Shown: positions 1-61,420 of the stretch, piece by piece
Position numbering within the stretch: position 1 is the stretch's first letter
How the letters are laid out: each line of letters begins with the position of its first letter
NCBI GenBank assembly: GCA_000091205.1
Contig: AP006486.2
Length of the DNA stretch: 64,000 nucleotides
From: Cyanidioschyzon merolae
Lineage: Eukaryota
Strand: one strand, 5' to 3'
The notes under the pieces: model-generated
The model's input: only the letters and a program-made list of their open reading frames with translations
What the model was told of the DNA's origin: nothing
The model's database searches: none
Program-made: the position numbers and the translations under genes

Positions 1-1445
1 CGGCGAGGTGCTCGAGCTGCCCCGCTCGCATATCCGCCGTCTCGCAGGATACACGCTCTAGATCCAAGGTCATGAGCTCAGGTGCGATGAGCGATCGCGA
101 TTGCGCTTTGCCCTCCGTGGAAGCCTCGGGTGCCGTGGCGTCACCTATGCGGGCGAGAGGGCCATTTCCCGCAGAGCTGCCACCATCGGATAGCCGCACC
201 GAGGACGCGCGTCGACGGCTGAAGAGGCCTCGACGCTCGCGCCCGTTGCCCCCTACTGCCGACGGCGGTGGCGTCAGCGAACGGAGAGCGTCGGCAGACG
301 TCGCGGCAACCTGCGATGCGACCGTTGCGCGACGTCCATTCACGTCACTCCCGCTGCCTGCGAGTGCAGTCGACGCCAGCAACTCACTGTCTGCGGAGAA
401 TGTTCGGCGGTACGCAGCCATGACTGAGGCGTTCTCGACGTAAGCATTCATCAGCATCATGCTCAGAATCGCATGCGGAATCAAAATCATAGAGACCTGG
501 GTACCACGAGCGCCCCAGCCATAATTGACGCGCCGGCTTATGACCGAGCTGCCGATGCTGAGAAATCCGCCCAAGGGCGAAGTACTTTGCAGCTCGCCGG
601 CAGCGGCAGGCGACGAACCAGTGCTCCCGCCTCCCACCAGCTGTGTCGACTGCGGACTCGATGCCGCTGCCGAGTTCTGCGACTGATGACCGCCCAAACC
701 CATGATGCTCGCGCCGCTCGCAGCAAACGAGGTCAGTCGGCTCAGCATGCTTCTGGTTTCTGAGCCGGCGCTGCCCGCCGCACTGCCTGCGCTCGCCGTT
801 CGCTTCCCGTTCACAACGACGGGTGCACGCTCTGCAGTCAAGTCCGCCCTCTCCCGTGGCTCAGTGGCATAGAGACGCTCACCATACCACTCGGTCCGCA
901 GCTCAAACGCCTCAAGTCCGGGCACATGGATGCTTTTGCGTAGCACCTTCCGAGGGCTTGTCAGAGCAGCGGCGGGAGATCCCGGGTAGTACTCAGAAAG
1001 CCCCGAAACGCTTGGCACTGAGGATGCGTTCTCCTGAACGTCAGGACTTGCACTACCCTCCAGTTTCTTCCCCGCGTTCATCGTAGCACTGGTGCGTTTC
1101 GGAGGTGCAGACCTCGTGTCGTCGGGCACACTCGTAAAACTGGACTCCCGTGAGTCGGCCGGGACACTAGACCTCGCACGGACCGGGCGCGACCCAGTAC
1201 CGGGACGCCAACTACTCAGGCAGCTGTTCAGACCTTGGCCTGTTGTCGTTGACGATCCAGGTGGCGAACCTTGGTGTGCAGCACCGGCAGCAGCACCAAC
1301 GGGCACTTCTCGTACCGTCGAACGTGAACTTGCTGCTGCAGTGCGGTGCGCATTTGCGCCCCCCGGAGCGCGAACGGGATGCGTGCGTGACGCAATGCAC
1401 GCATCGTTCGCCGGCGCACGCATGACGCGATGCGTGCACTCCTTT

Positions 1446-1640
1446 GCAGTCGGCGATGATGATGATAACAACGATGATGATGATAACAATGACGATAACA
1501 ACGATGATGATGATAACAATGACGATAACGATGATGATGATAACAATGACGATAACGATGGTGATGATAACGATGGTGATGATAACGATGATGATGATAA
1601 CGATGGTGATGATAACGATGGTGATGGTAACGATGATGCT
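1446..1640. repeat. Imperfect GAT/GAC/AAC-based minisatellite (about 21-27 bp period); would encode poly-Asp/Asn in one frame
   Basis: Visible tandem repetition gatgatgatgataacaatgacgataac... . The poly-D/N stretch in ORF 1092..1691 has no other protein-like context. Confidence 0.8.
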
Positions 1641-4286
1641 ACAAGGACATCCATCGATCACGAGGCACGCCATACAGCAGCAATGCTGTAAATACTGGAG
1701 TGCGCCGGGCGCTCCGTACCGCACAAGTGTATGGGCCGGCTGTCGAGGCTTGTTGTGAGCGATCAAAGACACAGTTCATGTCAGTGGTGTTTGTACGAGT
1801 CGGTGATGTAGGCGTTCTCGGGAGCGTTGACGGGAGGCCTGTTACATTGTCGGAGGTGGGTATTGAAGAGTGTTTTCGGAGCGGACGTGCGGGTCATGGA
1901 ACTTGACGGGTTTTTGGAATGCTTGACGAATATTTCTGATCACTGATGGCAAGTGCGGAGTCGCCGGGGAACCCGATCATTGCATGCGTTTTGTCCGGAT
2001 AAGGCGTACCCGGCAGGACGCAGGGTGCCTTGATGTGACTCGTGTGCGTTGTTAGGGAGGGCGTTTCGTCGATGGACAGCGACTACAGCAGCGGTGCAGC
2101 CCGTGTTGCGCTAGGCGTCGACGTGAGGCTCAGTAGCCGGAAAATGATCGCTGGATCAAGAGTCGATACTCAGCGAAACGGTCGGTCTGGAGCTAGCGGA
2201 TCTTTTTGGGGTATCCAGAGCGATTCAGTGGTCTTTTGCATTGATTGCCGATTACCATCTGCTATCCTGGGGATTCTGGGTAAGTTCAACGGGCGTGCAT
2301 CGACAATACAGTCCTGGAGTGTGCTTCGGGTGTCGCTGCGCGCCGCTGCCTGCGATGCACGTGTCGCTGCGACGCAAGACAGCGAACACGAGCACTCGGA
2401 AGCGCGACGTCAACAGGCATCGAAGCGAGCACCTCGTTGCAGTCATAGAGCCATGAGTTGCGACCATGCTGGTGCAGATGCAGCGTACAAAAAAAGGCAC
2501 CAGGTCAGCTTCATTGACTTGGCAGAAGCGCATGAGCAAGCGAGCCCGCACCAATGCCCATGCCCGAATGCGCTCTCGCTATACTCGGGTTCGGTGGACA
2601 TGGAATGCGGCATCGCTTGCGCTGTTCCTGCCTTTTGATTTCTTTGAAACGCTCGTCGATGTGCAGCATCGGTATCCAAGGTGTGGCAATAAGAGCTTAC
2701 GTATTTATAGATATTGCTTGAGGCTCCGGTTCCTGTTTTCGGAATCGATGGTACGAATCTTCGCAGCTAGACTAGGCTACTTCCCCAGAATCTATGTATT
2801 TGGCGACGCTGTCGAACAAGTGTTCCTAAAATGGCCGAAATCTGCATCCTGTTCATCATTAAAATCTCCCATTCCTCTCATATGCACACGTGTAGCACCC
2901 TCAAATGATGCCGTCTTCAAGAAGTATATCCGAAATCTTCATCCAATTCATCATGAAAAGCTTTCGCGCTTCTCGTTTCTTTACGAGTATCATCCCCAAA
3001 TCATGCATTTTTCAAGTTTCCGATCTTTTTCCGGTCCGAGGAAGCTCATATGCTCAACGATTGAATGCAGCTGGATTCATGAGGAAACATATTCGACGGC
3101 TCCCGCTGACCACTTTAGGCGTTCATGGAGGAAACCTAGCAATCGCTTCCAATGGACACTAGGTCGACGTTGTGCATGAAGGCGACGTAGACGGACCAGC
3201 ATGTATAGACTCATTTGCTCGCCTGGATTTTTCTTGCAGAACTTGTTTCATCATGGACAAAATCTCGTTCCGCACATCCTCTTCCGGATCGAACAGCATG
3301 GGCTCGCGCACGCACCAGACAGAGTACCCGCCGAGGGTATCGCGCGGAAGAAGCCCCTGATCGTCAGGACCGGCAGCGGGTGCGAAAACCGAAGAGGTCG
3401 GCATCGAACGTAGCCTCTTATACCCGTCCAGGGCATGTCAAGAGAAATGAAGCAAGCGTCCGCGCGCCATAGCGCGGCGCTTGGAGAATCATGCCTCTTG
3501 GACATGCGGGCTTTCCTGATCACAATCAAGCATCACTGCTGCGAAAGGCGCAGCGCGGCGGTGCACAAAGGGCATGGAAACGGAAAGCAGGACATAGATC
3601 GCAGCTTTCGACTGTCGATGAAATTCGGTGATAACTGCTGGATACTACTTCTTCGGGACTTGAACGGAACCATCGGCATCCTCCAACTGTTAAGAACAGA
3701 GCTCTATGGAAAGAAGAACCCGTCGTATTTACACCTGGAGATAAAAGAGAGGAGAGCGCCTGCCGAGACTGGTGTTAGTGACTCTCTGGGAAGCATCGCG
3801 AGCTCTCGTGCGAACGCGCTAATGCGCTGCATCGACCTGCTCCATCAGATGCCGACATACGTGTAGCACAAACACCACGCAGCTCAGTACCAGCACGACA
3901 TACCCAAAGCTCGGTACGTACCTTCACCTGTTGGTGCTCAATGCAGCTCGAGTCGTCGCCAACGCCTTCCGAATACGCCTTGTGCCAAGGCAGATGCACC
4001 TGCCTCCACCAGCAGCTCCGGAAACGATGCGGCGCGCGCTGATCGCCGTGCGTGTGTGCGTGCGAGCATGCGAGCGTGCGTGCGTGATTGCATGCGTGCA
4101 CGGCGGTAATCGCGCCTCCGTGAACCAGCCACAGCGTCGGATTCGATCGCCGCGCGGCTGCATTCACGGAAATCGCCTGATCAACAGCATTGTTCTGCGC
4201 TGGGCGTGCTACCCGATCGGTGCGACGGTGAATACGCTGGTGCTCCAGTCGCTCGCTTTCGTTTCACTCGTAACCAATCAGTATCC

Positions 4287-5357: not shown

Positions 5358-6292
5358 GACGCTGGCCGTGCAACGACACGATGCCTCTGGCCCTGGTTGC
5401 GCCGTCTGCGCCATGTGCATGATCCGGTTGGTGTGTGTGACGGACGCGATGCGGTTGCATCAGCACAGGGCGGATGTGATTCACGCGGCACCGTACGCAT
5501 GGTCAATCCTCGGTGCTGCGCTTGCGCGTGGCCGGCTCAGCGTTGGAACTTTCTACACGGCCGCGACGGGTACGAAATGCTCGCAGTGCATAATTTGAGC
5601 GACGAGTGAGTCTTGCGGTGCAGCTCACGAAGCTTCTGTGAATGGTATGCGACCCAGAAAACAGCGCCAGCGACCATGGCCTGCCTCTTGGCCAGGCGCA
5701 CATACGCGATTTGCTTTGCTGCAGACGCGCTCGTCGAAGAACTCGCGAATTGACTGACGATGGGCATCGCGTATAGTCGTACGCGCTTGTATTTTTGACT
5801 TTGAGACGACAAGCGAATCGTACCCCGAGTCCGGGGCGCACTGGATACGCACCATACCTGCCGCTGCTTCCGATGACATTGACGGCTGCGGTCGGCGAAC
5901 TTAACCTGAGTTCTCGGAGCGCGCCACCAGCCAATAGGTCCCCTGATTTTCGTGGTGTAAACGCACCGTTGACCATATTGCAATACTAAGATGTGTTTGA
6001 TTGACCGAACAACTGCGGAGAGCGTGCGCAGCATTGGCCTCAGACAGCGGATTGATCGCAGGAAACCCATCTGCAGCCTCTGCGGAAATCCGAGTCGTTC
6101 GAGACACCCCAAACAACGGTAACGATAACGTATTCAGGACAAGGAAACGACGGTTGGTATGTTCGACGATGACGCTAGTGAAATTTACGACTCTGTCTTT
6201 ACGAGCACGCGCTCGAAACTAGTGCGTCTTGCGCTTCAGCGGTGAGCGCTCGGAGACGGATCCCGCGAGCCGCCGTTGTGCCCAGCGTCCGC

Positions 6293-6733
6293 TCACTGTG
6301 CCAACTGGTTACGCAAATCTTCGAGCGCGTCCCGCAGCTCTCCCATATGCTGTTGCTGCTCCTCGATCCGCTGTAACAAGTAGTCCAGGTAACGCACAAC
6401 TGGCTCTCCAGATGCGGGCGGATTCCAGGACTCCAGCGGCTTCCTTCTGCCGTCTGTTGCTGGTGCACGTCCTCCGACACCATTTTTCGTCGGTGTCACC
6501 ACTTCGTAGCGCCCCGCTGCGTGAAACTGGGCGTCGAAGTGAGGCTTGCAGAACAATGTCCCACTGATCTGGGCATAAGTGCCGAGCGCGAGCTTCTTGT
6601 TGCAGGTGTGACAACGGAAACAGTTCGCGTGGTAAATACGACCATCTGTAGCTATCCTCTCAGCAGCGTAGACGGTCTTGTTACAAAGACAACAAACTTC
6701 GGACGAACCTCCGTAGATCATGGCGCTCGTCAT
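6293..6733 (-). CDS. Small single-LIM-domain protein with C-terminal coiled coil
   Basis: Perfect LIM spacing C-x2-C-x17-H-x2-C-x2-C-x2-C-x17-C-x2-H (CCLCNKT...HANCFRCHTCNKK...FCKPH). The C-terminal heptad-like Q/E/L-rich tail ends the ORF. The ORF-track start at 6841 is GTG; the first ATG is at 6733. Confidence 0.55.
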   Translation of the reverse strand: MTSAMIYGGSSEVCCLCNKTVYAAERIATDGRIYHANCFRCHTCNKKLALGTYAQISGTLFCKPHFDAQFHAAGRYEVVTPTKNGVGGRAPATDGRRKPLESWNPPASGEPVVRYLDYLLQRIEEQQQHMGELRDALEDLRNQLAQ

Positions 6734-8399
6734 AGCGGGAGTCGGTGAAGCGTTCAGGTTGAAGACAGCGGGGATTTCAAATTGAAGGAGAAAGGCCAAA
6801 CGGCTAGCAACATCGCGAACATCGATCACGAAAATGGACACGTGTCCGCGCGCATTGCACAGGATGCGCGTGATGTTTTTTCATGGACAAAACGATTCCA
6901 TAGGCCAGCGTTCTCCGATGATGCGCATTTTTCTTTTCTTACTTTTTTTGTGTATTTTTTTTCAGTGTGCGATGAGATATCCATCAAACCCCTACACTCA
7001 AGTTACATTACCCAGACTTTTTCTCGGATATTCTGGTCGTTTCATACGTCCTATCGTGTGTGCTTAGAGCCTGCAGTTCCGTATTCGCCTTTGCACCTTA
7101 ACCGCTGGAGCTGATAGTTCATAGAGCTAGAACGGCTTTTCTATACCACAGAGGGCGTCGGCTCGAGGCGTGCTTCACCCGACGTAGAATCGGGTCTCGT
7201 CGTCAGTTTGTGCTCGGACAGTCTGCAGGCGCAAACTTGCCTTCGCTGCACGACACGCTGGAGAAACTTCGCTGTTAGAATGAATCCTGGGAGCCGCCTC
7301 TCTCCTTCGTGATCATGCATGGAATGCGTTGTTGTCGGTTGGCAATGCGGGTTTGTGCTTGACGCTCACCACAGTGGATAGGCGCAGAAAGCGCACTGGG
7401 CCCGTGTGCGTATCCGATTCGCTGGACCTTTTGCATAGAAGGTAGCATGCGCGTGATGGGCGCTCCCTCGACTGCCGCCACCGTCGTCGCGTGTGCGATC
7501 TGGAATCAGCGCTGTGGACTGGCGCTCTAGGGTCGATGCAGTATGTCTGCCTGCTTGCCTGGCTGCCTGCCTGTTGAAGCACGGGTACGCATGCGATAAC
7601 GCTGCCACTAGGGCCGTGATACTCGTGCTCGTGCACAGCCTGTCTTTTTTTGCTATTCTTATGTACTGGAGTAGCGCCGAGGAGAACGCTTCGTGCCGCC
7701 GATCTCGGTGACAAGGTGCACTATAGGTGCTCGCGTGAAGCTGGGCAGGTTCGCGCACCGCAGCGGCGCCTCGCAGCAGGCACGAATAGAGACGATCACC
7801 AGCAGCTGATGACGTGATGGAACTCGAGTGCGTATGAGTTCCTTCGGCTGTCTTCGATAGGTTTTGCCGTCATCGGCAGCTATGTGGTCCGCGATGAAAG
7901 CAACTGTGCCGAGGAGTGCTGAGAACCCTGCGAGCGACAAAGCGCCCGCCAGCTCTTCACAAGCGGCGAACGAGCGGTCGAGCGAGCACGCCACAGACGA
8001 GGTTAGCTGGGTACGACGCCGCCAAGCCGACGTGGTCGAGGACGTTATGTACCGCGAGCGTATGACGCTTCGCGTGTGCGCGTTGGGTTTTGGTGCGTTC
8101 AGTAGAGTTCGTGGCGCACTGGTGATCCGCGATTGCCAGTATCAGAATAGACTGATAATTGGAACTTGTCAATCCGTTCCAGCCGCTTGATGTTTTATCG
8201 GAAATAGTTTACATGGACGGAACCGAGACTCGAAGCACAGCGATCGCGATAAGCGCCGAACGGTTCATTCATGTACACGGGATACTTTGTCGTTAGTCGG
8301 AATGGCTTGGTTGACACGTTGCCACCGGAGTAGTTTAGATCATCAGAACCAGATGATTCGGAACGCGCCCAAACAAAACTTCACAAAAGACCAATAATA

Positions 8400-9100
8400 T
8401 CCCTCGTATTTGTAGGCACGAGACTCCGCTGTCTTCCGTTGCTTACCCGTAGCATCTACACATCACGCATTCTTCAAGTTCTTGATCTTTCTATTTCAAG
8501 CCAACTCGTGAATGCAGTGACTCGCGCCGTTTTGGTGGACAAGGCATCAAACTCGACGTCGTCCATTGGTGAATGCTTCACGAGCTCATCCCGACTGTTC
8601 ACTGGACTAATATCGTCAAGTAAGTGATTGAGTTTGAAAGACCAATCCTCCTTTCGTTGTGGCTATCGACGAAGCTGCATTCCACAGTAGCATGATCCAT
8701 CGCCCGCAATATGCTACCAGGGGTTCCCGTCTCTTCTGCTCCGAAAGAAAACGGTCTTGGTTTTGGACTTTAGTCACCGCAGCGATCGCTTCTAGTCGAG
8801 CACTGGCTATCGTTGTGCGCGAAGGCAGCGTGGACGGATCACGATTCCTGGCCATGATCTCCAGCCTGGATATTCCTTCTGGTACGTGTTTCATCATGAA
8901 CAACATCGCGTTCCATGAACCCGCTGTCGGATGGATCAGCATAAGCTTTCACGCGCTGCAGACAGCGTTCTTGACGAGCGGATCGCACAGAATAAAAAGT
9001 CCATGATTATGGGGTACGGCACCGAGCGCTGATACGAGCGAGTGCATCTAGCGAAGCGTTCTGTACACAACAGGGGCGTGTTCCGAGCGTTGGTGCAAAC
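8400..9100 (+). repeat. Diverged copy A of a dispersed repeat family shared with 19.35-20.1 kb, 26589-27987 and 30976-32374 (about 60-65% nt identity to copy B)
   Basis: Colinear nucleotide and six-frame similarity to copy B (AIDEAAFHSSM...ISSLDIPSGTCFIMNN vs SIDDTGFTSSM...ISSLYSLSGTCIIMNN) and to the 1.4-kb repeats (IDETAFHTSMRPRVRY). Boundaries are approximate. Confidence 0.55.
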
Positions 9101-11389
9101 GTTCACGTGCCACTGGACCGAAATCGGACCGCAAGGTGTTGTCGCCAGATGGGAACACATGGCTCGAGTCGAGTGTCACCGCTGCGACCGGCGCGCCAGT
9201 GCTGGGCGCAAACGCGAAGCTGAGGAAGGCAAGCCACTCGTAGACCGCAACCACTGCACGGGCAGGAGAGGCGTCGAGCGCAGCAGCCGGTGGCTGTGAA
9301 ATCGGGACTTCATGTTGCCGTCAATGTCCTTTGACCTCTGACAAAGGAGCTGGAAAGGCAAGCGAGATCCGCGTATTTAAAGCCGGATACAAGCAAGAGA
9401 AGAAAGCCTACAACGCCTAGTGTTGATGTAAATATGGGAAGAACCCAAAAATTTAGCGTTCACACCCCTCTTGAGTAAGTGGACTTGTCCCTTTTTCTTC
9501 TGACACCGGTGCCATGTCCCCGAATCGATGCATCGAAAAGGATGCGCTCGGGTGCGAAAACGCTGCCCGGTACCCGATTTGAAGCCTTTTCCTGGACATC
9601 ATATCGGTATCCTCGGTGACTTGGAATGATGGAACAAAATAATCGTTTCCGGTGATTTTATATACGGCGCTTCAGCATAGTCCGTGGAAATGTCGCTCGA
9701 CGTTAGGCGACTGTATGCTGCGGAAGCATGCAACATTCCCGAATGATGCGCTTTGCATTGCAGACTTGATGTAAAACGCTTTGTCTCTGCGCACATTGTT
9801 ACTGATGGATTCACGTGAGAGGACGCCCCTCATGCTCGAGTTCCTCGCCATCGGACGCTCGACCCGCTTTTTCGTACACCATATGGGGCATGAGGCTCTG
9901 GTCCAAACCCGATATCTCTTCCGCTATCAGCATGAACCCGGGATCTTGAAGCGCATATGTTGTCCTGAATATGTATTGAAGGGATCCGTGCACCGTTGAT
10001 TCCTGCACTCGTTGGGCGCTCTCTTCGAAGGCACAGCCGTGCCGCCTTTTGCGTACGACAGCGTCACGGGACGTCACCGACCGATGAGACTTTTCGGTGA
10101 CGTTTTTATCCAGCTGAGCGAACAAATCATGGAATGCGCACTTGTCGCCTTCGTAGAACGGTAATTGTTGGCGAACCCAGTGCACCCTAATTTTTCCTAT
10201 GGAGACGTTGGGACACATACAGTCCGCCTGAATAAAGCGTACAAGGCATGGCCCTGTTCCCGGTACGATGCTCAGAGCGAGTCAAGATCAGACATCAAGC
10301 CGCCATTCCGCTTGTCGGTATGCGACCCGTTGTCCATTGTGCCCGAATCCCAACGACTCCAGTCCATGGGAAACTTATCCCGTATTGTTTCTCCTGGCTT
10401 GCGCATTGCTCGTGTTGTTGCACGCAGCATTCGGTCGATGCATTCCAAAACAATGTAGACAGCTACCAACCCTGCGTCTGGAACGACTACGAACGGTCCA
10501 GGGACATGCTGCGCCAAGGCCCGCGAAATCAGACGAGCCTTTATTGTGTTGGATGCAATGCAACGCTCCAGGATGCCCTGCATCTCACTGTTTGGTAGCT
10601 TCTCCCCGTCACGATGCTGATGTAGCCAGGCATGGAAAACGGCTGCTCGCTGGTATTGCCGCGCTCACAGGTTCTCGTTGCTCTCTCTTTGCGTCACGTT
10701 TTGGGTGCATCTGCTTCCGGTTTGCACGTTGGTTTTTCTCCTTCCCATATGCTCGGTGTGGGGGCATAGATGTAATCACTGTACTCTACAACCGTTTTCA
10801 TTCTCTGGTAGCAGTCGGACAGAGAGGACCACGGCATAAAAAACTATCTTTTCTGTGTACATACGTATCTGCTGGCTCTTAGGTGCCTTTTCATCGTCAT
10901 CTGCATAGCGACCGTACCCGCAAACCGAAGCAACGCTTCCGTTCAGCGTATGCGGAGGCTGAGAACCACGTGCTTACAGGAGCACTTGCGATACCTGCTC
11001 ATGCAACATCTATGAGATGGGACTCTCCGGAAACGGCAAAGCCGTTGCTCGTTATACCTCACGAGGCAAACAAGAGACCTCGCCCCGGGAGGTACGCTCT
11101 TGGTGCACGAGCGATACCCTGAGAGCAAAGCGCGTTGCTCCTGGTTGTGCCTGTGCTGGATGCGCGCTCACCCAGCTGCAGCTAGGCACGTCTCCCGTTG
11201 ACCTTTATCACTGTATCTCGTGTATCCGGTGCCTACCTCAAAGTCTTCCAAACTATTCAGGCAACTTCATTCCTGAAAGGCTATCTACCTACCAGTATGT
11301 CTACGTTTGCGCGAACATCACGTGCGCTGCTCGCTATCGCTCATCGATATCCGACGTCTTCCCGTTCCACACGTACCTAGAGACGATTC

Positions 11390-16741: not shown

Positions 16742-18626
16742 TCCAGTTCTGGTTACTGTTGCGTCCCGAGCATACAGCTGCGGTAGGCCTTGGTCTTATC
16801 ACAGAATAATGGCAGCGGTTCGCTTGAGCAAGGCCCACCGTTTCCCGCTCCGTAAACAACGCGCCGGTAAACACTCAGGTATATAAACTGACGCAAGATG
16901 CGGCTTCCGCAACCCGAACTGGAAGCGCAGCACCTGCCCCAGCACTTTCTGCCCTTAAAAAGGTTTGCGTGGCCGTCTGGTGCGCTGCTGGGCAACCGCC
17001 AGTCCAAGGTAAGGGACAGTACAACAAAAACTCGCCCTTTGGACGACTCCACGAAGGTTCCCTGTACCTCCGTGTACTTGTGAATAACGTTCACTTCGAG
17101 CTGCAGCGCGAGCAACAGCTGCACCAGACCCCGCTATACCTTCAGCTGCCACTCTCAACAAAGAACACTCTCCCCAAAGCGTGTAGAAGCAAGCGAGCCT
17201 CAGCCTCTAACCCCAGAGAAGTAGTCAGCGCACTTGCAAACGTCGCCAGCACCACCACAGTAACTTTCAGAGCTTAACGACCAGCTTAGCGCGCGTACAA
17301 GTCTCTGTAGTCTCTGAAAGCACGGGCACCTGAAAGACCCTCGACAACCTCAAGGTATGCAGCTGGAATCGACGTGCTCCGGCCGCCGTTGCGACGCGCG
17401 CGCAGAACATGGACACGGATGCGCCATGTGCACGCATGTGCGCATTCCGGGACACGTCACCAGGCGCTCCGCTGCGTGCAGCACCTCAGCGGCATCGCTC
17501 AGGCGCACTGCATCGATGCGTGGATCCGAAGGCGCGTACACCGCGCACCGCCCGATGTTTTTTCCATTTGTGTATATATATTGACCGTCTCGAAAGCAGG
17601 GAGGACACATTCCACTTTTAGTCCCTCTACTCGTTTGTTTTCCACCTCAATCATGTGGTATCGAATGCTGTTTTGTAGTGTATAGAAGGCGATCGACAAC
17701 ACGATGCAATGTAGTGTATAGATCGAAGATGAATAACCTGTTGGATATGTATTCTTAACTGAAGAATGCAAGGAGCACTGCATTCCTCTTTTAGGTCAGT
17801 CATATCAAAGTACTCAGATGGTTGAGGTACACTGAGAGAAACAATCGTAGGCGCGACGCACCAGTAACCGATATTCTCGAAGACTGCTTGCGATGCATGG
17901 CAGAAAACGAACCGTGGATCACCTAGCGCAAAGCAAACGTTACGATAGTAGCAACTAGGTGTGTCTCTTTTTTCCAATAGCTAGTTCACTTGGTCCTGAG
18001 GACACTGGGATACAGTCGCAAAAAAATATTCTAGTTCACGCACAGCCATCTTCCACTGTAATCGAAATCCCCACAGCTTTCCGGGAACGTCGAGATCGAT
18101 ATGAAGCACAGGAGCGTCGACTTGTTTTCTATGCCGATGGGCCCTTTTTCCGGAAGAAACCGTCGGAGCGTATATGGGTATGCGCATAGAAGACGTCCGT
18201 GGTGTGTATGATCGAACTCAAAGAGAACGAGGATATCAACACCAGTTCTAGCTGCATTGGAGTCATTCTGCGGCCTCAGTTTCGCTCGCAGAGAAGGATC
18301 ATACGAAAGCAACCACTTTGCCGAATCATTGAAGACTTTTTTTCAAGACGTCTGGTGACTTTCTTCTTTTACGCAACGTGGTATTCCACCATTCTTCTCG
18401 CGTTCCTGCTTTTGAAGATTCTATCAGGATAGAGATGCTTTTCATTCCAGCGTTCTCTTCGTGGTCCAACATCATTGAAGGAGCATTTTCTATCCTGAGA
18501 AGTAATGATCGCTTCTCTAGGCGAGTCGCTGAATCTTTAAGCCCATTCGTATACCGGGACACGTTTGGTCTTTCTTGCGCAAGCACTTCTCCATCTGGGA
18601 AGCGCCTCACCTAAGGCCATAAAAAA

Positions 18627-18908
18627 GTGCGTTCATTTGCAGATATAAAAAATTTAAGCAATGAGCTGGGGTCTACACTTCAGAGCGTCAAGATGGAGAG
18701 AAGGCAGCGGATCATTGCGGCAACAGAAAAGCTCAGAGAGCTGACAGAGCCGGATTTGGCAATGAGGGCACGCATCCTAGCAGTCCCCACTATGCTGCGT
18801 TCAACCAGAGGCGATAAACGCATGAAATTCGTGAACCGAGACGTTAACGCCGCCATCAATTTCAGGAGATCTGCAGTGCTGAAGACGAGACCTGCGGAAA
18901 TTACGTGA
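18627..18908 (+). pseudogene. Degenerate TnpB/Fanzor-like (IS200/605 OrfB, RuvC-III region) ORF fragment in an AT-rich island
   Basis: C-terminal ...LRELTEPDLAMRARILAVPTMLRSTRGDKRMKFVNRDVNAAINFRRSAV matches the TnpB RuvC-III signature (L.YKA...V.P.YTS ... DRDvNAAiNI), but the CxxC...CxxC zinc ribbon is absent. Upstream frames show a possible RuvC-II-like FEDSIRIEM at about 18414. The local base composition is AT-richer than the flanking genes. Confidence 0.4.
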
Positions 18909-19349
18909 ATCAACTTTTTGGGACACCCTCTCAGATCCGAGGTGTGCAGGGAGAAACTGAAACCGATAGCAGGGGGCCTGTCGAAACAGACGGGGAGGCA
19001 TCTGTGATTGCATACTCATTTACCGTCCATAGATGTGAACCGTTGTTCGCTTCACTGGAACATAGTCCAGAACGCGGGCGAACACGTGAAAGTGCGCTGC
19101 CTCATCTAGTTGTCATGAACATGAGCGTCTGTGAGATTTCTCTGGACTGCTTCCTTCCCAGCTGGGTCATTTCCGGGACTGGATACGCTGGTGCTTCGTG
19201 TCCCGCCAGCTACGATGTCAGCGCTAGCGTGACGATTACGCAGTTCCCCGCAATTGCAGACGCATTTCGTTACCAGGCAGAGGTTGTGATCTATGCTTCG
19301 CTTCTCACTTTCGTCTACTTTGTAAAAAGCCTCAATGCGCCTTTCGCAA

Positions 19350-20100
19350 CGATGCCACCTGACTCAGGTCGATTGTTCCCAAACGTTCACGCCAACTCCA
19401 CTGCCAGGCGGTGCACTGTGGCGAGTGACGGCTTGCTTCAGGACCCAGAACATCTCAGAGGCGGATACAAAAGGCTTCTCTCGATAGTCTCCCCGGCTCC
19501 GGGTCCAATGCCTTACTCCATGATCACGGACGTGTTCTGTGTGATACCCTCGGCGAGTATTCTTCCCGTTGCATACGCATATACACGCTCTTTCTTTCAA
19601 TAGAGGCGTTTCGGAACTCGGTATTATTCATGATAATACAAGTACCGGAAAGAGAATACAGGCTCGAGATCTTGTCCAAAAGATGCGCTCCATCTACGCG
19701 CACTCGGTGCAAAACGCTGCCACATGCTGCAATGGGAGTGGTCAATGCGATGACTGGAGTCCGAATCGGAGAACCTTTCCCATGCAAGCAGCAGAGACGG
19801 ATGCTTCTGACAGCATATCCGGCGAATGGTCTCATGCTGCTAGTGAATCCCGTATCATCGATAGACAAAAGAGAAGAGAATTCGTTTTTCGACCGGAATC
19901 GAGTAGTAGTCGTGGACGTGAAAAGTTCAGTGAACCTACCGCATGAGCTTGTGAGCAAGTCGACTAGGGACCATGTCGAGTTTTTTCACCTCATGAATGC
20001 AGCGGCGCGTGATGCTGTCCCCGCGACTTGCATTGTAACAAAAAGACGAGATACTTGAAACATGCGTGATGGATACATTCTATACATCAGGATCGAAGAA
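19350..20100 (-). repeat. Diverged copy B of the dispersed repeat family (inverted relative to copy A)
   Basis: The reverse complement aligns colinearly with 8400-9100 over at least 600 bp, e.g. cacgagctcatcccgactgttcactggact vs cacaagctcatgcggtaggttcactgaact. Shares the IDDTGFTSSMRPFAGYAVRSIRLCCLHGK block with the 1.4-kb repeats. Confidence 0.55.
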
Positions 20101-20626
20101 GTCTGGCGTCCTCTGCGCATGCTCTGGGCGATGATACAGGTTTTACCACAGAGTTCAGTTCGACGGTGTCGCAAATTATCTCGATTCCGGTGACGGAACA
20201 AATTCGAGCGGCAACGCGTCGGAGTTGCTTCTCCGAAACGACACCCTAGATTCCCGAACCTATATATGCGTCCGTGAACCCTTATTGATGCAATTGGAAT
20301 GTCAAAGCTTTAAATCTAAAACGAGAGTTTGCAAAAAATCGAAACGCAGGAACAGACTGAGCATCTCCGTATCTGCTTTTCCTCTGACACGGGTTTAGAT
20401 CGCCGCTGCGTACATCGTTTCCCAGAAGAAATTTCGCATGATATAGTTCCTGCCCTAGACGCTGAAGACGCTTGCCGACTCTGTGATACCTGATCGCGTC
20501 TTCAACCCTAAGCCAAAGAAAAACCGTGTCCTGACCTCGTGAGCGACACGTCCACAGACAGGTTTCCTGCGGCTTGTAGTCGCTAGCGCGCGTGCTTACC
20601 GGAGGTCAAACGCATAGGTGCCAGTT

Positions 20627-26588: not shown

Positions 26589-27987
26589 GTCAACGTGAAA
26601 AAGTATGGATCCACTTTGCTGACTCTTGCGTACGCTGTAATATCTGGGTATCTTGTCGTTGTTGTTACACCAACACCACTCATTTCACGATACGCCCCCT
26701 GGCTGCTCTTTTTTGCAGTCTTGGACAATCCGCTTCACATACGGGCGTATCTAGTGTCCATCCGGCGCCGTCGCAAGCAGTCGCAGAATGCTCCGATACA
26801 AACAAACGTCCCGATATGGGTGCTTCCTGCGTTAGCCAGCGCACCGGGTACGGACTGGCAGGAGTCGCAGTCTACGCTTCGCTTGCCGTGCTCATTCTCG
26901 TTGTATACAATATCAATGCGCTCGTCGCAGCGCAGACTGCGTGGGCTCTATCAGGTGTTTCTGTTTGCGTACTAGCGCGCTCCCTGAGACGATTGCCCTC
27001 TCGCGCTGCACAGCTTGCGTTATCGCTCGGTAGACGCACTGTGGGCAGGTACAGGAGACTCTTGGGGATACCGTTGACCGTCTCCTCGCCCGGGTACTCT
27101 GGCCTAGGGTCACGAGCGTCCGCTGTGCCATTCACTAGGCGAGGGCGTTGTACGCTGTCCGGTGCATGCGCAAGTGCACACTGTTGCATTCGAGAGTGGA
27201 TTTGCATCACGTGATGTTCCCCATGAGCACGAGACAAGTGCCGCAGGGACTAGTCAGTGTCGTGAACAATTCGAGAGGTGTCGATCCGTCGACGCTCGCT
27301 CTGTGCACCGCACGATCACACGCTCAGCTGGAAGTGATCGCTGCGATGCCTGCATTCCTGGTCCCTGGATCGTTCACGATACTTGAAGCAAAGACGGCAG
27401 ACGCGGGGCACGTATCGCACCCGAGGACGCATGCTGGTATGGAATGCCGTCTCGTCGATGGCCGCAGCCAAAGGCAGCATCGTGTCTCGAACGGCACTGA
27501 ATGCCTGGCGAAGCAAGATCAGCGAATGTGTCGCATGACCATGAGTGCACAAGTCGCCAACGGAAGACGTCGAGTACGGTTCGTGGTCCATCCAGAGACG
27601 CGATTTACCGCACCTGCGAGGCGCCACAGACCAGGAAGATCGAGGACTTGAAATATGAGCGATTTGGGCATGCCCTATGGATCGAGAGGAAAAACGCAGA
27701 TACTCGTGTGTATGCATTGGGTAAGGATCTCGGATACTTTACGAACCAGTGTCCGACGGCGTCGTGTATCATCTCGATTCCGTTCACGCACCGAATGCCA
27801 GCACCACAAGACTCGAAAGCGTCACGCTAACACAGACTACGACCGAGGATCCCGGAACCAGGTCTGAACCTGTGAGCACATCTCGGTGCACTTGGAATGT
27901 CCGTACAGTACGTCTTGACCTGGGTTCTGAATAGAATCGCAAGGCGCAAAAACACCCATCCGTCCAGTGTTCTGGTCTCATTTATGA
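26589..27987. repeat. Copy C1 of a 1,399-bp direct repeat (about 98.5% identical to 30976-32374), member of the dispersed repeat family
   Basis: Every six-frame ORF in 26468-27981 has a near-identical twin offset by +4387 (e.g. 26595..26975 vs 30928..31362, 27148..27651 vs 31553..32038). Repeat edges gtcaacgtgaaaaag ... ggtctcatttatga were read directly. It ends 4 bp before the GUF1 stop. Confidence 0.9.
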
Positions 27988-27991
27988 GGCA

Positions 27992-30313
27992 TTAGGAAGC
28001 GGCGTCACGTTTCGCCGTCAGAATCGCTCGAAACGCCTCCTTCGGCACGCGAATGCCGCTTGCGAGGGCTCGTTCCGCGGCGATTTTCTTTCCTCGTTTT
28101 TGTTTTTCGAGCAGTTTCTTCTTGCGTGTGACGTCGCCACCGTACAACTTGGCGGTCACGTCCTTCCGCAGCGCGTTCAGATGCTCGGAGGCAATGACCT
28201 TGGACCCAATACGCGCTTGGATGGCGACTTTGAACTGTTGACGCGGGACGATCTCCAAGAGTCGCTGACACAGACTCCGTCCAATCGCTTGTGCCGCTGA
28301 TTGATGACAGATGACGCTCATGGCGTCCACAACTTCACCGTGAATGGAGATGTCGAGCTTCACCAGGTCACTCGCTCGATACCCAACCAGGCGATAGTCG
28401 AGGCCAGCGAAGCCCTTGCTCCGCGACTTGAGCTGGTCGAAAAAGTCACTCACCATCTCCCCCAGGGCCATCTCGTAAATGAGCACCACCCGGGATTCGG
28501 TGAGGAAGCGCATGTCGAGGAACTCGCCACGACGGCTCTGGGCGAGCTCCATGAGCGATCCCACGTACTCTGCTGGTGTGATCATTTCGATACGCACATA
28601 GGGTTCCTCGATTCGTTCAATATTCGTCGGTGGCGGCAACTTGCACGGATTGTCGATCTCGAGGACCTCGCCGCTGGTCGTATGAACGCGGTAGACAACC
28701 GAAGGTGCCGTCGTCACAAGATCGAGGTCGTATTCTGTCTCGAGGCGCTCGATGACCACATCGAGATGGAGCAGGCCCAGAAAACCGCAACGGAAGCCAA
28801 AGCCCAGTGCCGGCGAGTTTTCGTTTTCATAGTAGAGCGCAGCGTCGTTGAGTTTCAGTTTTTCGAGAGCATCTCGTAACTGGTTATACATGCTTGCATC
28901 GGCGGGGAAGATACCGCTGAACACCATCGGCTTGACCTCTTTGTAGCCCGGAAGCGGTTCAGATGCAGGATGGCGTGCTAGGGTAATCGTGTCGCCAACG
29001 CGAGCGTGCGCTACGGTTTTGATGCCAGCCACCAGGTAGCCGACCTCGCCAACGGACAGCTCTTCGACAGGAAGCGGTTTCGGTGTGAAAACGCCAATTT
29101 CATCGACGTCGTATTCGCGGCCATTCGCCATAAAGCGAATACGATCCGACTTGCGTAAGGTACCGTCAACGATACGAAAGTAGACCACGACTCCGCGATA
29201 ATCGTCATAGGCGCTATCGAATATGAGCGCGCGGAGCGGGGCATTCTCGTCGCGGACTCGGGGTGGCGGAATCCGTTTCACGATTGCCTCCAGTGTCTCT
29301 TCGATGCCAATACCCAGTTTCGCCGAGGTCCGAACTGCATCGCGCATATCAATACCGATGACCTGCTCGACCTCCTGGGATGCCTGCTCTGGCTGCGCTG
29401 CCGGCAGATCTATTTTGTTCAGAATTGGGACGATCTCCAAATTGTTCTCCATCGCCAGGTACGCATTCGCGAGTGTCTGCGCCTCGACACCCTTGGTCGC
29501 ATCCACCAGCAGAAGTGCACCCTCGCACGCTTGCAGTGAACGAGAGACCTCATAGGAAAAATCCACATGGCCCGGTGTGTCGATCAGGTTCAGCACATAA
29601 GTCTGGCCGTCGTGTGCGGTATAGTTCATTCGCGCTGCCTGCAGCTTCACCGTAATCCCTCGCTCACGCTCCAGTTCCAGCGAGTCAAGGTATTGCTCTC
29701 GCATCTCACGCGCACTTACTGCGCCTGTTCGTTCGAGTAGCCGGTCCGCCAGGGTAGATTTGCCCGCGTCCACGTGAGCAGTAATAGAAAAGTTTCGAAT
29801 GCGCGACGGTGGTACCCGGATCAGGCGTCCCTGTGGCTGCGCGTGTTGTTCACCATCTGTTTGGAAGGGCGGCGTTGGTGCCACTGGCTTCGACGGTGTC
29901 TCACGTGTTGTGTTCTGTGGCAGCGACTGCTGAGCTCTCAGACTGAGAGCGCGTCCCGAGTCTCGCGCACACCTCTTCAAGTCTAGCGGGAGTCGAGCTC
30001 TATCTGCAAATGCTGCTGGTAACAGAGCGCACTGCCGCCAGTTCATATGGCGTCGAAACACGTTGTATAGCGTCGGACTCATGACGGCAAAGGCAAGTGC
30101 TGGTGCCTGCCAACGCCCCGAAAGCCGATCCCGCTCCGAGTTCGTAGGGAGCACGCCCGACCTACTGGTGCCAGTTCCGCTGCGCAGGCACTGCACACGC
30201 CCGGCACACGCCAAGGCGCGTGCCTCTGAAGGAAGCTGGCGCTCGGGGACTATACGCTGCGGTTCGTACGCACACTGGCCTCTACTTGGAACGCGTTCAG
30301 CATTGGTATGCAT
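27992..30313 (-). CDS. GUF1: Translation factor GUF1/LepA (EF4) homolog with N-terminal organelle-targeting extension of about 150 aa
   Basis: Complete LepA architecture: G1 [10 protein letters not shown]3 [13 protein letters not shown], and the LepA C-terminal domain ...[24 protein letters not shown] at 30313, alternative internal ATG at MSPTLYN. Confidence 0.9.
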
Positions 30314-30975
30314 GACACTAAGCGTGTCCGAGTCTACGAGTACCGTTCACCGGAACGACAGGCAATTAGAGACGCACTGCTCGTGTTCTCTACGAGAGCA
30401 CGTCAACGACCACTCCCTGCCCTGAGACCCAACGAAGCCAACGAAGTTCTGTGTCAGTGAGCGGTCGTGGTAGATACCCCTGCTGCAAAGCAACGCAAAG
30501 CAACAGCACCGTAATAAAGTGGCAACAGAAACGTTTCCCTGAGGCCGAACACCAGCACAACGCCTGCGCCTGTAGTCCGGCGATACAGCGCACGGCCGGC
30601 GCCAGTACCGCAACAGGCCGTACAGGCTGGCAAGTGCGTCGCCGTGCCCGGGTTCAGTGGACGGATCCGGTGCTGTGCTTGCAGCGTGATGCTCACGTTG
30701 GATGGACACGAATGGATAGCACTGGAAGAAAAGAGTGAGAGACGAGACTTCGACGCCTCTGCAAGGCCAATGCGTGCGCACAGTGGAGCACTCGCTCTGG
30801 GTAAACGGTAACAAGTCGAAATCGCACCCTAGGGGTACGGCACGGGTAGCTGCGATATCTTCGTTCGGCATCGCGAACGAGCTACGAACGTGCAATGCGA
30901 GTGTCTGTATGACGACAGGAGAGATACGTGGGATATCACGCTGGAGCGCTGCTGACTGCGTTGCGTTGTACGCGT

Positions 30976-32374
30976 GTCAACGTGAAAAAGTATGGATCCA
31001 CTTTGCTGTCTCTGGCGTACGCTGTAATATCTGGGTATCTTGTCGTTGTTGTTTCACCAACACCACTCATTTCACGATACGCCCCCTGGCTGCTCTTTTT
31101 TGCAGTCTTGGACAATCCGCTTCACATACGGGCATATCTAGTGTCTATCCGGCGCCGTCGCAAGCAGTCGCAGAATGCTCCGATACAAATAAACGTCCCG
31201 ATATGGGTGCTTCCTGCGTTAGCCAGCGCACCGGGTACGGACTGGCAGGAGTCGCAGTCTACGCTTCGCTTGCCGTGCTCATTCTCGTTGTATACAATAT
31301 CAATGCGCTCGTCGCAGCGCGGACTGCGTGGGCTCTATCAGGTGTTTCTGTTTGCGTACTAGCGCGCTCCCTGAGACGATTGCCCTCTCGCGCTGCACAG
31401 CTTGCGTTATCGCTCGGTAGACGCACTGTGGGCAGGTACAGGAGACTCTTGGGGATACCGTTGACCGTCTCTTCGCCCGGGTGCTCTGGCCTAGGGTCAC
31501 GAGCGTCCGCTGTGCCATTCACTAGGCGAGGACGCTGTACGCTGTCCGGTGCATGCGCAAGTGCACACTGTTGCATTCGAGAGTGGATTTGCATCACGTG
31601 ATGTTCCCCATGAGCACGAGACAAGTGCCGCAGGGACTAGTCAGTGTCGTGAACAATTCGAGAGGTGTCGATCCGTCGACGCTCGCTCTGTGCACCGCAC
31701 GATCACACGCTCAGCTGGAAGTGATCGCTGCGCTGCCTGCATTCCTGGTCCCTGGATCGTTCTCGATGCTTGAAGCAAAGACGGCAGACGCGGGACACGT
31801 ATCGCACCCGAGAACGCATGCTGGTATGGAATGTCGTCTCGTCGATGGCCGCAGACCAAGGCAGCATCGTGTCTCGAACGGCACTGAATGCCTGGCGAAG
31901 CATGATCAGCGAATGTGTCGCATGACCATGAGTGCACAAGTCGCCAACGGAAGACGTCGAGTACGGTTCGTGGTCCATCCAGAGACGCGATTTACCGCAC
32001 CTGCGAGGCGCCACAGACCAGGAAGATCGAGGACTTGAAATATGAGCGATTTGGGCATGCCCTATGGATCGAGAGGAAAAACGCAGATACTCGTGTGTAT
32101 GCATTGGGTAAGGATCTCGGATACTTTACGAACCAGTGTCCGAGGGCGTCGTGTATCATCTCGATTCCGTTCACGCACCGAATGCCAGCACCACAAGACT
32201 CGAAAGCGTCACGCTAACACAGACTACGACCGAGGATCCCGGAACCAGGTCTGAACCTGTGAGCACATCTCGGTGCACTCGCAATGTCCGTACAGTACGT
32301 CTTGACCTGGGTTCTGAATAGAATCGCAAGGAACAAAAACACCCATCCGTCCAGTGTTCTGGTCTCATTTATGA
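30976..32374. repeat. Copy C2 of the 1,399-bp direct repeat
   Basis: Identical edges and colinear sequence with 26589-27987; about 20 substitutions over 1.4 kb. Confidence 0.9.
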
Positions 32375-47917: not shown

Positions 47918-48175
47918 TCATTCAATCAATCATTCACTCAATGTTTCTTTCTTTCATGCAATCATCCATTCAATCACTCATGCTTTCTTTGACTCATTCA
48001 CTCAATGTTTCTTTCTTTCATGCAATCATCCATTCAATCATTCACGCTTTCTTTCTTTCACTCATTCAATTACTCAATCTTTCCTTCTTTTCATCCAATC
48101 ATCCATTCAATTATTCACGCTTTCTTTCTTTCACTCATTCAATCACTCAATCTTTCTTTCTTTCTTTCAAAATGG
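47918..48175. repeat. Minisatellite, about 64-bp unit, about 4 copies
   Basis: Direct reading shows the unit atgtttctttctttcatgcaatcatccattcaatca(c/t)tca(t/c)gctttctttg/tctttcactcattca tandemly repeated with small variations. Confidence 0.8.
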
Positions 48176-59100: not shown

Positions 59101-61420
59101 TGTGTTACCAGGTGAATGTTTGACAGAAAAATCCAGCAGAAGAAGAGGGACAGCTGGCAACCCTGCGTTGGGATCCCCACGAAGCAGCTGCCTGACGAAG
59201 CATGTCAAGGCGAGTGCATCTAAGCGAGCCGTCCTCGGGTAAGAGGCTATCCAAACCCTGATGTTGTCCCGTGCCTCTCAACTTTGCTGGTATCAACGGC
59301 TCTGTCATGTATCCAGTAGCCTAAAAGTGACCTCTGACATCGGATAACACTCATCGGACTAGACTGACCCATGGAGCATTGGCTGGCACGAACTGCAGCT
59401 GAACGCCAATCGCAGTTATGTGTTCGTTGACGGCCTTTGAGTCATGGAAAGTGATACGGTCTTTGGGCACATCAGAATCATGTGAGAAGTAGAAGCCATA
59501 AAATGTATCGACGAAGGATGAGGTGTTGCAAGGTCCTCCCGTTTCACGATGCGTTTGCGGCGACGAGATCAATCGCCTCTGAACCTGATGTTGTCGGCAT
59601 GCTCGTCTGGCGCTTCCCCGCAAACGGCGATTCACCCGCGCTTGGGTACCCGTCTGCAGCTCTACCACATTTCCGAATAAAATCTTACGGAGTGAGACGC
59701 GCACTCGTTCCACATGCTGTAATCGCTTGTGTTGCATTTTGTAATGAACAGGGCGTGTTGCTGAACACGTGATTGTCTCCAATAGAGGTGCGCCCCGTAA
59801 AACGAGGAATGTTTCACAACCAGAGTCTATGTATGTACACTTAGTCAAAGGGCGCTTCCGAGCCATTCTCCATCGGCCTGTGTGCTATCGGATTAAGTTT
59901 CATTCGACGCACACATCGAGCGTCAGAGCTTGCCCCACAAAGTTAGATCGCCTCAGTTCTCCGGGGCTCGTATGCTGCACCATACATCGACTCACGAACA
60001 ACATGCGTGCGTTGTCGCTGGTGGAATTCATCATTACAGGGAGTCGTCGAGCTCGCGCCCTATGAGCCACTACAGTCTCGTCATCGCCCCGTCGGGTGAA
60101 CAGCTGTTCCGGCCTATCTATTTTCTTCTTCTTCGTCACTTGTTCTTCTGCGCTCGATGTTTGGCAATGAGGGATTTTTCCGTTCGTTTTCGACAGGCGG
60201 CGATGGCGGCGCTCCGGGATCCCCGAATTCCCTGTGCATAACTTTCCCTTGGAATTTTTATTTCTTCAAAATGAACCGAAATCTATATTTCCGTAGCTGC
60301 GGACCTTCTTGGAGTTTCAAGGACTCGCAGGTGAATGACGAAAAATGCACCAGTGCGCCACCGAGCTGAAGACTTCAGCGCTTCGCCGGATTGAACAATC
60401 ATTACTTTTCCCGATAGAAAGCACGCCCTCTATGGGGTTGAATCACGGTGCGTGTGTGTGTGTGGAGGAATAAACAGACGCTCTAGCCCCGACAGCATCA
60501 GCGAAAGCTCGAACACAAGCGGAATCGCACCATACCACATTGTCAAATGCACGGACGTTGTCAGATGTCGGGTGAAAAGTCTTCTATGATTCGACAAAGT
60601 CATTGGTGCTGTTGTGTGAGCCTTTCCTGCGAGCAAGACCGCGGCAACCTCATTGATGCACTGCTGCACAAAAGAACACGATAATGTCCTGGTTCTCTTC
60701 GAGTTCGATCGCACATACAGCGGACTCCTTCACCTCGAAAACATATAAACGCTCGGAAGATTTTGTTTGAAGGAAGCCTCATCGACTGAAAAAACATACT
60801 GACGTGCCTCTGCTTCATAGCGAAGGCGACTTTCCACGAACGCTCTAGTTTCGATTTCGATGCAAGATGGCCGTGAGTAAACTACGAATTACTTATTGCG
60901 ACTATATTCCGGGGTTTCCGGGACCACACGAACACGCTGTGGAGAAGCAGAGACGCCCGTTGCGACTGCGAACTTCGCTTTCGCTTTCCGTAAGGCGATC
61001 AACGGGTAGTTTTTCTATCATTGGCAGCAAGTAATCCGTGAGCATATCGGTTTTCTGCACGCAACGCATATTCTTGTTTCTTTCAGTTTTCCCCAAACAT
61101 CAGAATCCTGTGGTATGACTGATCTACAGGAGGAATGTAGCGCACCTTGCTCTGCTCCGTAAAGAATCTACCCTACGGGCAATTCGTCGACGATCTAAAC
61201 ACCACACTGCATCGTGATGTCAATCTCTTGCTCTACACTCCGAAAAAGCACTCGGTTACACCTAGTGGGATTGCAGCAACAGCGAGTTGATAGACATTAA
61301 AAGTGTCTCGTGAGAAGCTAGGATCTTGTGCCCGTTCACGAGTAATGCCCGCACATCTGGCGACTTTCCAACAGTCGGCGAAACGCTTTCCCACATCAGC
61401 ATGCACCAGCGCTGCGTCTC

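Follow-up and report, generated by a model that had tools for sequence, protein, structure and literature searches.

Five copies of a dispersed repeat of about 1.37 kb, here called family 1, lie in a 64-kb stretch of chromosome 4 of the red alga Cyanidioschyzon merolae (the window, meaning the whole stretch that was analysed), and they are most probably fossil non-autonomous class II transposons: internal-deletion derivatives of a Tc1/mariner-type element that carried Fanzor1. Fanzors are RNA-guided nucleases, and Fanzor1 is the eukaryotic homologue of TnpB. The two halves of the repeat are homologous to a DDE transposase and to the C-terminus of Fanzor1, respectively; the junction between them is common to all copies, their consensus ends in inverted repeats, substitutions among them are neutral in pattern, and further copies occupy other loci. 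Dead, non-autonomous DNA transposons are commonplace as fossils in genomes; the pedigree of this one, with a Tc1/IS630 vehicle and a Fanzor1 cargo, is more interesting.

C. merolae is a textbook minimal eukaryote and has been described as almost transposon-free. Its genome (16.5 Mb, 55% G+C) is nearly without introns (PMC1955436). The published count of its mobile elements comprises only 26 retroelements and eight "class II elements", the latter being closest to bacterial transposases by weak BLASTX matches (E values of 0.07 to 6e-7), and about 5% of the sequence consists of 3.2-kb repeats (Nozaki et al. 2007, PMC1955436). These are probably the same as CMe-1A / TE-N2_CMe, a Fanzor1 repeat of 3169 bp present in about 150 copies, in which no inverted repeats were found and which was left unclassified (Bao & Jurka 2013, PMC3627910). 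A literature search returned nothing connecting Cyanidioschyzon, its Fanzor or its repeats with IS630, Tc1 or mariner. Open reading frames (ORFs) of the window are identical to chromosome 4 proteins of C. merolae 10D, namely GUF1/LepA (BAM79114), a Raf-like MAPKKK (BAM79110) and ubiquilin (BAM79113).

Self-BLASTN finds five copies of family 1 in the window (A to E), and a hidden Markov model (HMM) of the family matches exactly these five places, scoring 173 bits over 8638-8997 of copy A. A first-pass annotation, made from the sequence alone, had rightly recognised a dispersed family; it counted four copies, missing copy E, and took copy A to extend over 8.4-9.1 kb, where the full unit is considerably longer. 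The copies and their parts are as follows, terminal inverted repeats being abbreviated TIR and the first and second catalytic Asp of the transposase D1 and D2.

8140..9505, plus strand: copy A, full unit of about 1.37 kb, ends from the multiple alignment and consensus
8140..8157, plus strand: decayed 5' TIR of copy A, TATCAGAATAGACTGATA (consensus TGTCAGATGAAAATGGAA), mapped from the consensus
8213..8976, plus strand: transposase relic of copy A, from the ATG through the helix-turn-helix (HTH) region to the equivalent of PPYSP, by DDE_3, HMM and alignment
8668-8670 and 8899-8901, plus strand: catalytic codons of copy A, D1 GAC (kept) and D2 AAC (Asp to Asn); Glu absent
8994..9330, plus strand: Fanzor1 C-terminal relic of copy A, in a different frame from the transposase, from the consensus peptide mapped by tblastn
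9153-9155, 9174-9185 and 9306-9308, plus strand: Fanzor motifs of copy A, RuvC-II Glu (GAA), first CxxC (C-H-R-C) and RuvC-III Asp (GAC)
9488..9505, plus strand: decayed 3' TIR of copy A, TCCCTTTTTCTTCTGACA, mapped from the consensus
19044..20389, minus strand: copy B, full unit; D1 at 19857-19859 kept, D2 at 19626-19628 is AAT (Asn)
about 19075-19536, minus strand: Fanzor relic of copy B, including C-H-R-C ... K-C ... RNRHASADI
26589..27987, minus strand: copy C, full unit; D1 at 27454-27456 kept, D2 changed to Gly
30976..32374, minus strand: copy D, 98.2% identical to C
2588..3857, plus strand: copy E; D2 kept (IMDK, 3256-3258 GAC); Fanzor relic at 3330-3785

Copies A and B had been said to align colinearly over at least 600 bp at about 60-65% identity, and this holds: self-BLASTN pairs 8450-8914 of A with 20082-19613 of B (65.7% over 478 bp, E 3e-19), and with +1/-1 scoring 8288-9304 pairs with 20243-19233 (colinear over 1033 bp, 60.9%, E 8e-70). 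The latter scoring also aligns A with C over 1001 bp and B with C over 1118 bp, each at about 58% identity. Over about 1.3 kb the old copies are 49-62% identical to one another in a star-like pattern, all roughly equidistant, which points to one old burst of amplification; C and D alone are near-identical by self-BLASTN (98.2% over 1399 bp, 25 differences). Differences between A and B fall evenly on the three codon positions (44/45/43 over 114 codons), as the first-pass annotation had perceived, and every copy in the window is interrupted by multiple stop codons and frameshifts.

Family 1 is not confined to the window. Three contigs reached by looking up three of the profile hits described below (L016, L017 and L018) carry copies that lie between unrelated host genes and are 57-62% identical to A and B, and contig L001 holds another, also amid unrelated genes. 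On chromosome 5, the annotated 334-amino-acid "hypothetical protein" CME048C (BAM79278.1) clusters at at least 90% identity with profile hit P0073, a 305-amino-acid ORF retrieved by the family-1 profile, in which the first catalytic Asp motif (TDETAF) is kept and the second is lost; the CME048C gene model is probably spurious. Even substitution across codon positions, stops and frameshifts, copies elsewhere (including chromosome 5) and the inverted repeats of the consensus together agree with the earlier suggestion of a mobile element in neutral decay.

The 5' part of the unit descends from a transposase. In copy A, the ORF at 8659-9006 (plus strand) scores 29.3 bits against Pfam DDE_3 (gathering score 28.6), and a stitched consensus transposase scores 40.4 bits; Pfam finds nothing in single-frame translations of B and C, so that only A scores alone. 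A profile built from the translations of A, B, C and E and searched against 1.84 billion representative proteins retrieved 305 at E<=1e-3, 65 of them at E<=1e-10. Many of the 305 are short ORFs on Cyanidioschyzon-like contigs; the full-length hits (300-400 amino acids) checked in Pfam carry DDE_3 at E values of 1e-18 to 1e-29, some together with HTH_33 or HTH_Tnp_Tc3_2. An HMM of 23 intact relatives reaches 84 bits on copy A (8647-8928). Among solved structures the only match is the catalytic domain of Sleeping Beauty (SB100X; 5CR4, E 0.017, 17.6 bits), and the first profile, built from decayed copies only, gave no relevant match there.

The catalytic residues can be followed through the decay. 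The peptide IDEAAFHSSM, pointed out earlier in copy A, is present at 8665-8694 (plus strand), and so are its counterparts IDDTGFTSSM in copy B (19833-19862, minus strand) and IDETAFHTSM in copy C (27430-27459, minus strand). Aligned with intact transposases, IDE(A/T)(A/G)F is in register with D1 and IM(D/N)N..FH with D2. A, B, C and E still have D1. At the D2 position only E retains Asp, with Asn in its place in A and B and Gly in C and D; the consensus restores the Asp. The stitched consensus transposase starts MYSIDIR and aligns, from Met1 onwards and across the HTH region and the two Asp, with P0153, an ORF on the Joint Genome Institute (JGI) metagenome contig L014 (38% G+C), at E 3e-27. 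Other searches touch the HTH region weakly: Pfam HTH_32 reaches only E 0.058 on the consensus, and the HMM of intact relatives 7 bits at 8364-8531. Judged by its sequence, the block at 8.4-9.0 kb is a decayed IS630/Tc1-type DDE transposase and not TnpB.

Homology of the consensus to transposases ends at "...TAYSP", the equivalent of the PPYSP motif, about 7 residues before the catalytic Glu of NPIE. This Glu is absent from every family-1 copy in the window, and homology breaks at the same point in all of them; in the intact relative P0080, 34 residues (counted by eye) separate the second Asp from the Glu, and P0105 and P0129 align in register. An internal deletion accounts for the missing Glu. 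A TGA common to A, B and E was considered as an inherited nonsense mutation at the Glu codon and rejected, as the transposase frame there crosses the deletion junction: the shared stop arises because the old frame runs into out-of-frame Fanzor sequence.

Right after the transposase breakpoint, and in another frame, the consensus reads KKPVIVGYGTGRG...VVDIWEHLTRVKCHRCEG...CLCMKC...NRDLHAAISIL. Homology to Fanzor starts at "KKPVIVGYG", only the last ~125 codons being present, and covers the C-terminal signature of Fanzor1 and TnpB: the Glu of RuvC-II, [TS][TS]xx, a C4 zinc ribbon (CxxC...CxxC) and, for RuvC-III, "NRD..AA" with its RD. Immediately downstream of P0153 lies ORF L014_686. The consensus peptide matches it at residues 560-680 (E 9e-12 over 130 residues) and CMe-1 at E 0.01; by tblastn the peptide maps onto all five window copies. 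In an alignment of the peptide with CMe-1 and three Fanzor-like ORFs, the invariant columns G..G, P, E, T(S), CxxC and R(D/N) line up. Individual copies retain parts of the signature: A has the Glu, C-H-R-C and the Asp, and B has both Cys pairs, including the second K-C, and RNR..A. A profile of Fanzor C-termini, which includes the consensus peptide but is dominated by intact sequences, matches the solved Fanzor1 structures of Guillardia theta (9CER, 2.9e-28), Parasitella (9CF0, 4e-7) and Spizellomyces (8GKH, 1e-4). The N-terminal WED/REC region and the RuvC-I Asp are absent from the family-1 copies, whose Fanzor stretches are remnants, not genes; their identity became visible only once a consensus had been built.

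What an undeleted unit may have looked like is suggested by apparently intact composites of about 3.2 kb on two contigs. L014 holds two elements (85-3273 and ~6250-9380), each with a DDE_3 transposase and, directly behind it on the same strand, an ORF of 686 or 690 amino acids; these downstream ORFs end in a C-terminus typical of Fanzor, and their PF07282 matches are sub-threshold. A like pair, with an ORF of 733 amino acids, occupies 1424-4832 of L015. The inverted repeat of the first L014 element (TGTTCATCCAAAATGGAAAC) resembles that of family 1, and the second element has 32-bp inverted repeats with TA adjoining. The neighbours of the L015 element, genes for a deoxynucleoside monophosphate kinase and RNase H, are viral-looking.

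The same plan is known from PUl-1 of Pythium ultimum, PGv-1 and other Mariner/Tc1 elements carrying Fanzor1 (PMC3627910), in which, as in the L014 and L015 composites, inverted repeats enclose a transposase gene and, downstream of it on the same strand, Fanzor1. The HMM of 23 intact relatives matches the PUl-1 transposase full-length (147 bits, E 3e-47). Unlike PUl-1, the window copies have lost the C-terminal end of the transposase and some three quarters of Fanzor1 through the internal deletion; the TA target-site duplication reported for PUl-1 could not be shown in them, and the inverted-repeat sequence of PUl-1 is unrelated. Family 1 shares the DDE_3 fold family with Tc1 and Sleeping Beauty (DD34E) and with bacterial IS630, although the relationship is distant (the IS630 NCBIfam model reaches E 5e-4 and 19.6 bits against a cutoff of 100) and canonical Tc1 and IS630 elements, unlike family 1, have no Fanzor passenger.

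The majority consensus of family 1 is 1368 bp long and ends exactly in 18-bp TIRs, TGTCAGATGAAAATGGAA and TTCCATTTCATGCTGACA, which match at 17/18 bases; none of 2000 shuffles (0/2000) reached the inverted-repeat score. Multiple alignment of the copies, which the first-pass annotation had put forward as the way to a consensus, its ends and its coding capacity, thus yielded all three: a unit of 1368 bp, 18-bp TIRs, and a partial transposase joined to a Fanzor1 end.

We propose that the parent of family 1 was a composite of about 3.2 kb, with transposase and Fanzor1 between TIRs, of the kind that is intact in L014. An internal deletion would have removed about 1.85 kb, from just before the catalytic Glu to about Fanzor residue 555, leaving an ancestral unit in the order 18-bp TIR, 5' leader, transposase gene (HTH and DDE_3 core with both Asp), Fanzor1 end, 3' tail and TIR. 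The deletion would predate the amplification, because the junction is common to all copies. Such a derivative could make neither protein, and for this reason we suppose that full-length relatives moved it in trans, in one old burst; each copy then decayed neutrally, and today none is active as a transposon.

Copies C and D, the near-identical pair, bracket the GUF1/LepA gene (27992-30313, minus strand) as direct repeats 4.4 kb apart in the same orientation, the edge of C lying 4 nt past the GUF1 stop codon and copy D about 660 bp upstream of the start codon. We infer that they are two old neighbouring insertions kept alike by gene conversion. Both limits of the 98% identity fall within <=2 bp of the family-unit ends and the flanks are unrelated; a conversion tract would end there, because it cannot pass the limits of homology. 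The inverted repeats of C and D have decayed as much as the rest of the unit, and these decayed ends, together with the lack of a live family-1 transposase in Cyanidioschyzon, make recent transposition unlikely. An exact 36-mer of the element occurs in the metagenome collection only at the C and D loci, which argues that there was no recent burst. The 161-amino-acid ORFs of C and D gave no record by exact look-up. In strain contigs C-type and D-type variants occur in mosaic, a pattern that is in keeping with gene conversion but that short-read assemblers can also produce by collapsing repeats.

It is possible, though we doubt it, that one of the pair arose from the other by a recent duplication, whether by transposition or as a segment, about 1.8% divergence ago. 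The 25 differences in 1399 bp, the sharp ends, the unrelated flanks and the same disabling lesions in both copies would all follow from such an event, and assembler collapse could then be the source of the mosaic. For a random segmental duplication, however, it would be rare that the limits of identity coincide with the unit ends; the decayed inverted repeats and the lack of any intact family-1 transposase seen in Cyanidioschyzon speak against a transposition, and the restriction of the 36-mer to these two loci against a recent burst.

Several strain contigs break near the pair. L005 and L007 (99% identical) depart from the reference at about 30471-30511, where L005 runs into a U-box/WD40 gene; L008 (99% identical) departs at 27893, into an RPS13 gene; and L010 has a permuted order, GUF1-repeat-GUF1. 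These structures may reflect true rearrangements or amplicons, or else assembly errors caused by the repeat.

A number of results weigh against reading family 1 as deleted composites of transposase and Fanzor1. The inverted repeats rest on a majority consensus from only seven copies, with identities of 50-60%, and no inverted repeat in an individual window copy rises above shuffled controls. A TA target-site duplication, the hallmark of Tc1/mariner/IS630, could not be shown in the seven decayed copies, for which no empty sites are available; the dinucleotides flanking them are mostly TG (5') and CA (3'), like an extension of the inverted repeat. No full-length composite of the family-1 lineage was found in Cyanidioschyzon, the L014 analogue being from another organism. 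On the Fanzor side, Pfam PF07282 (the TnpB zinc ribbon) gives the consensus peptide 17.8 bits, below its gathering score of 26.3; the peptide alone matches no solved structure; and single copies match L014_686 weakly (E 0.014 for copy E).

The last three of these results would be expected if the copies were plain IS630/Tc1-like transposase pseudogenes and their Fanzor C-terminus a chance product of consensus building. We regard this as improbable. The match at E 9e-12 is to the very ORF that follows the homologous transposase in L014, and the invariant columns keep their register with three Fanzor-like ORFs and CMe-1. A and B keep C-H-R-C individually, outside any consensus, and B also the second K-C and RNR..A, while the transposase homology stops at the same point before the Glu in all copies.

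Far less probable still is that the whole repeat is a decayed TnpB/Fanzor gene with its zinc-ribbon/RuvC-III junction at 8.4-9.1 kb. In its favour, the genome carries about 150 Fanzor1 (CMe-1A) elements (PMC3627910), and the 3' third of each copy is indeed a Fanzor relic; the sense strand at 8.4-9.0 kb, however, matches DDE_3 transposases, and neither CMe-1A DNA nor the CMe-1 Fanzor protein matches anything inside A-E by BLASTN, tblastn or nhmmer. The first-pass annotation had raised a TnpB link on account of a short W/Q-N-A-A motif thought to be common to the copies. That motif does not occupy homologous positions: in A it lies at 8664-8711 on the minus strand and is the antisense of the IDEAAFH codons, in B (19707-19730) it is about 115 nt downstream of the IDEAAFH-type motif, and in C (27484-27507) about 40 nt upstream of it. 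The TnpB reading of the motif was accordingly rejected. What survives of the link lies elsewhere, in the decayed Fanzor1 C-terminus of the 3' third (about 8994-9330 in A), and neither in the cited motif nor in the transposase block at 8.4-9.0 kb.

An origin of the copies by local duplication of a host gene, or from a transposase that was domesticated and kept by selection, is scarcely credible. In its favour is the annotation of CME048C, which clusters with a profile hit, as a gene for a hypothetical protein; against it are multiple stops and frameshifts in every window copy, substitutions spread evenly over codon positions, loss of the second catalytic Asp in A, B, C and D, and copies amid unrelated genes at several loci.

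The window holds a second transposase family, represented by two relics.

17613..19004, plus strand: relic F, second transposase family; DDE_3 relic at 17613-18660 with "NIIE" kept
59903..61305, minus strand: relic G, paralogue of F; transposase relic at 61305-60320 with "FNPIE" kept

F and G are 65% identical over 1068 bp. Downstream of the transposase, and in the same orientation, relic F continues with CMe-1A nt 868-908 (18624-18663) and then nt 2737-3083 (18661-19004); it is a unit of transposase followed by an internally deleted Fanzor1, and not a member of family 1. Relic G continues with CMe-1A nt 875-1025 (60276-60108, including the Fanzor start codon) and then with Fanzor residues 629-706 (60112-59912). 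In both, the join to CMe-1A falls at nt 868-875, some 30 nt ahead of the start codon of Fanzor. An F-type unit also occurs at L001 3988-5360 (68% identity). The place that the transposase takes in F and G is occupied in CMe-1A itself by a non-coding TE-N2-like 5' module. The order and common orientation in F and G suggest that a CMe-1-like Fanzor was formerly carried behind a transposase by a Tc1/IS630-type transposon. When the ORF of copy A, a fragment of F and the Fanzor peptide of the consensus were run in word-indexed protein searches, the only hits were near-identical ORFs of related strains.

Two further DDE_3 relics, H (59324-59767, minus strand, just downstream of the Fanzor remnant of G) and I (37688-38067, minus strand), are weak and are matched by the HMM of intact transposases, not by that of family 1. 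This brings the DDE_3 relics of the 64-kb window to nine (A to I), compared with eight class II elements published for the whole genome. Those eight are probably the same kind of sequence as the relics described here; the paper that reported them (Nozaki et al. 2007, PMC1955436) neither assigns them to a family nor describes their structure, and does not connect them with Fanzor.

CMe-1A searches (BLASTN, tblastn and nhmmer) match 6991-7194, 18661-19004, 46905-47531, 60108-60276, 35400-36405 and other places in the window. Debris of CMe-1A/Fanzor1 lies at 35400-36405, 57604-58032 and 46905-47531 (all minus strand) and at 6991-7194 (plus strand), and includes a diverged Fanzor ORF relic covering residues 343-692, another covering residues 542-681, a TE-N2_CMe-like 5' module (CMe-1A nt 4-614) at 77.5% identity, and a short piece (nt 84-282). 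Like family 1, CMe-1A is a Fanzor1-bearing repeat of this genome, and only some 40 bp separate one of its fragments from the 3' end of copy B; it has nevertheless no detectable nucleotide similarity to A-E, the Fanzor remnant of family 1 being far closer to L014_686, and an end-to-end alignment of CMe-1A with the family-1 ends is not significant (84/2000 shuffles reach it).

Taking family 1 and the F/G relics together, we lean, by a modest degree, towards the view that Fanzor1 entered and spread in Cyanidioschyzon as cargo of IS630/Tc1-mariner elements, in at least two lineages, one L014-like (family 1) and one CMe-1-like (F/G). If this is true, CMe-1A would have arisen by exchange of the transposase module for the TE-N2 module, and DNA transposons would have left far more in the genome of C. 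merolae than the published figure of eight class II elements suggests. Relics with a transposase and then Fanzor1 survive beside CMe-1-like sequence, and family 1 and F/G give the unclassified Fanzor repeats of C. merolae a likely transposon family and a testable origin: some of its unexplained dispersed repeats would be deletion derivatives of Tc1/IS630-type transposons that carried Fanzor1. A Fanzor vehicle in an early-branching alga is of some interest; such elements are already known from oomycetes, algae and giant viruses. The 1368-bp consensus can be used for genome masking.

Only about 40 bp (19004-19044) separate copy B from the Fanzor fragment of the F unit; the two face each other with their 3' ends, that of the fragment corresponding to CMe-1A nt 3083. 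On L001, a 5'-truncated family-1 copy abuts the same kind of Fanzor fragment end, and ORF P0053 fuses the two. The tail-to-tail arrangement of the F fragment and copy B could reflect a nested insertion or a target preference.

The 64-kb window contains no telomere repeat. It does contain two imperfect short-period arrays: one of GAT/GGT/AAC triplets at 1425-1667, inside the overlapping mechanical ORFs 1092-1691 (plus strand) and 1212-1772 (minus strand), and one at 47900-48189 with an 8-nt-period, TTTC/ATTCA-rich unit, which lies just upstream of ORF 47941-48525 and runs into it.

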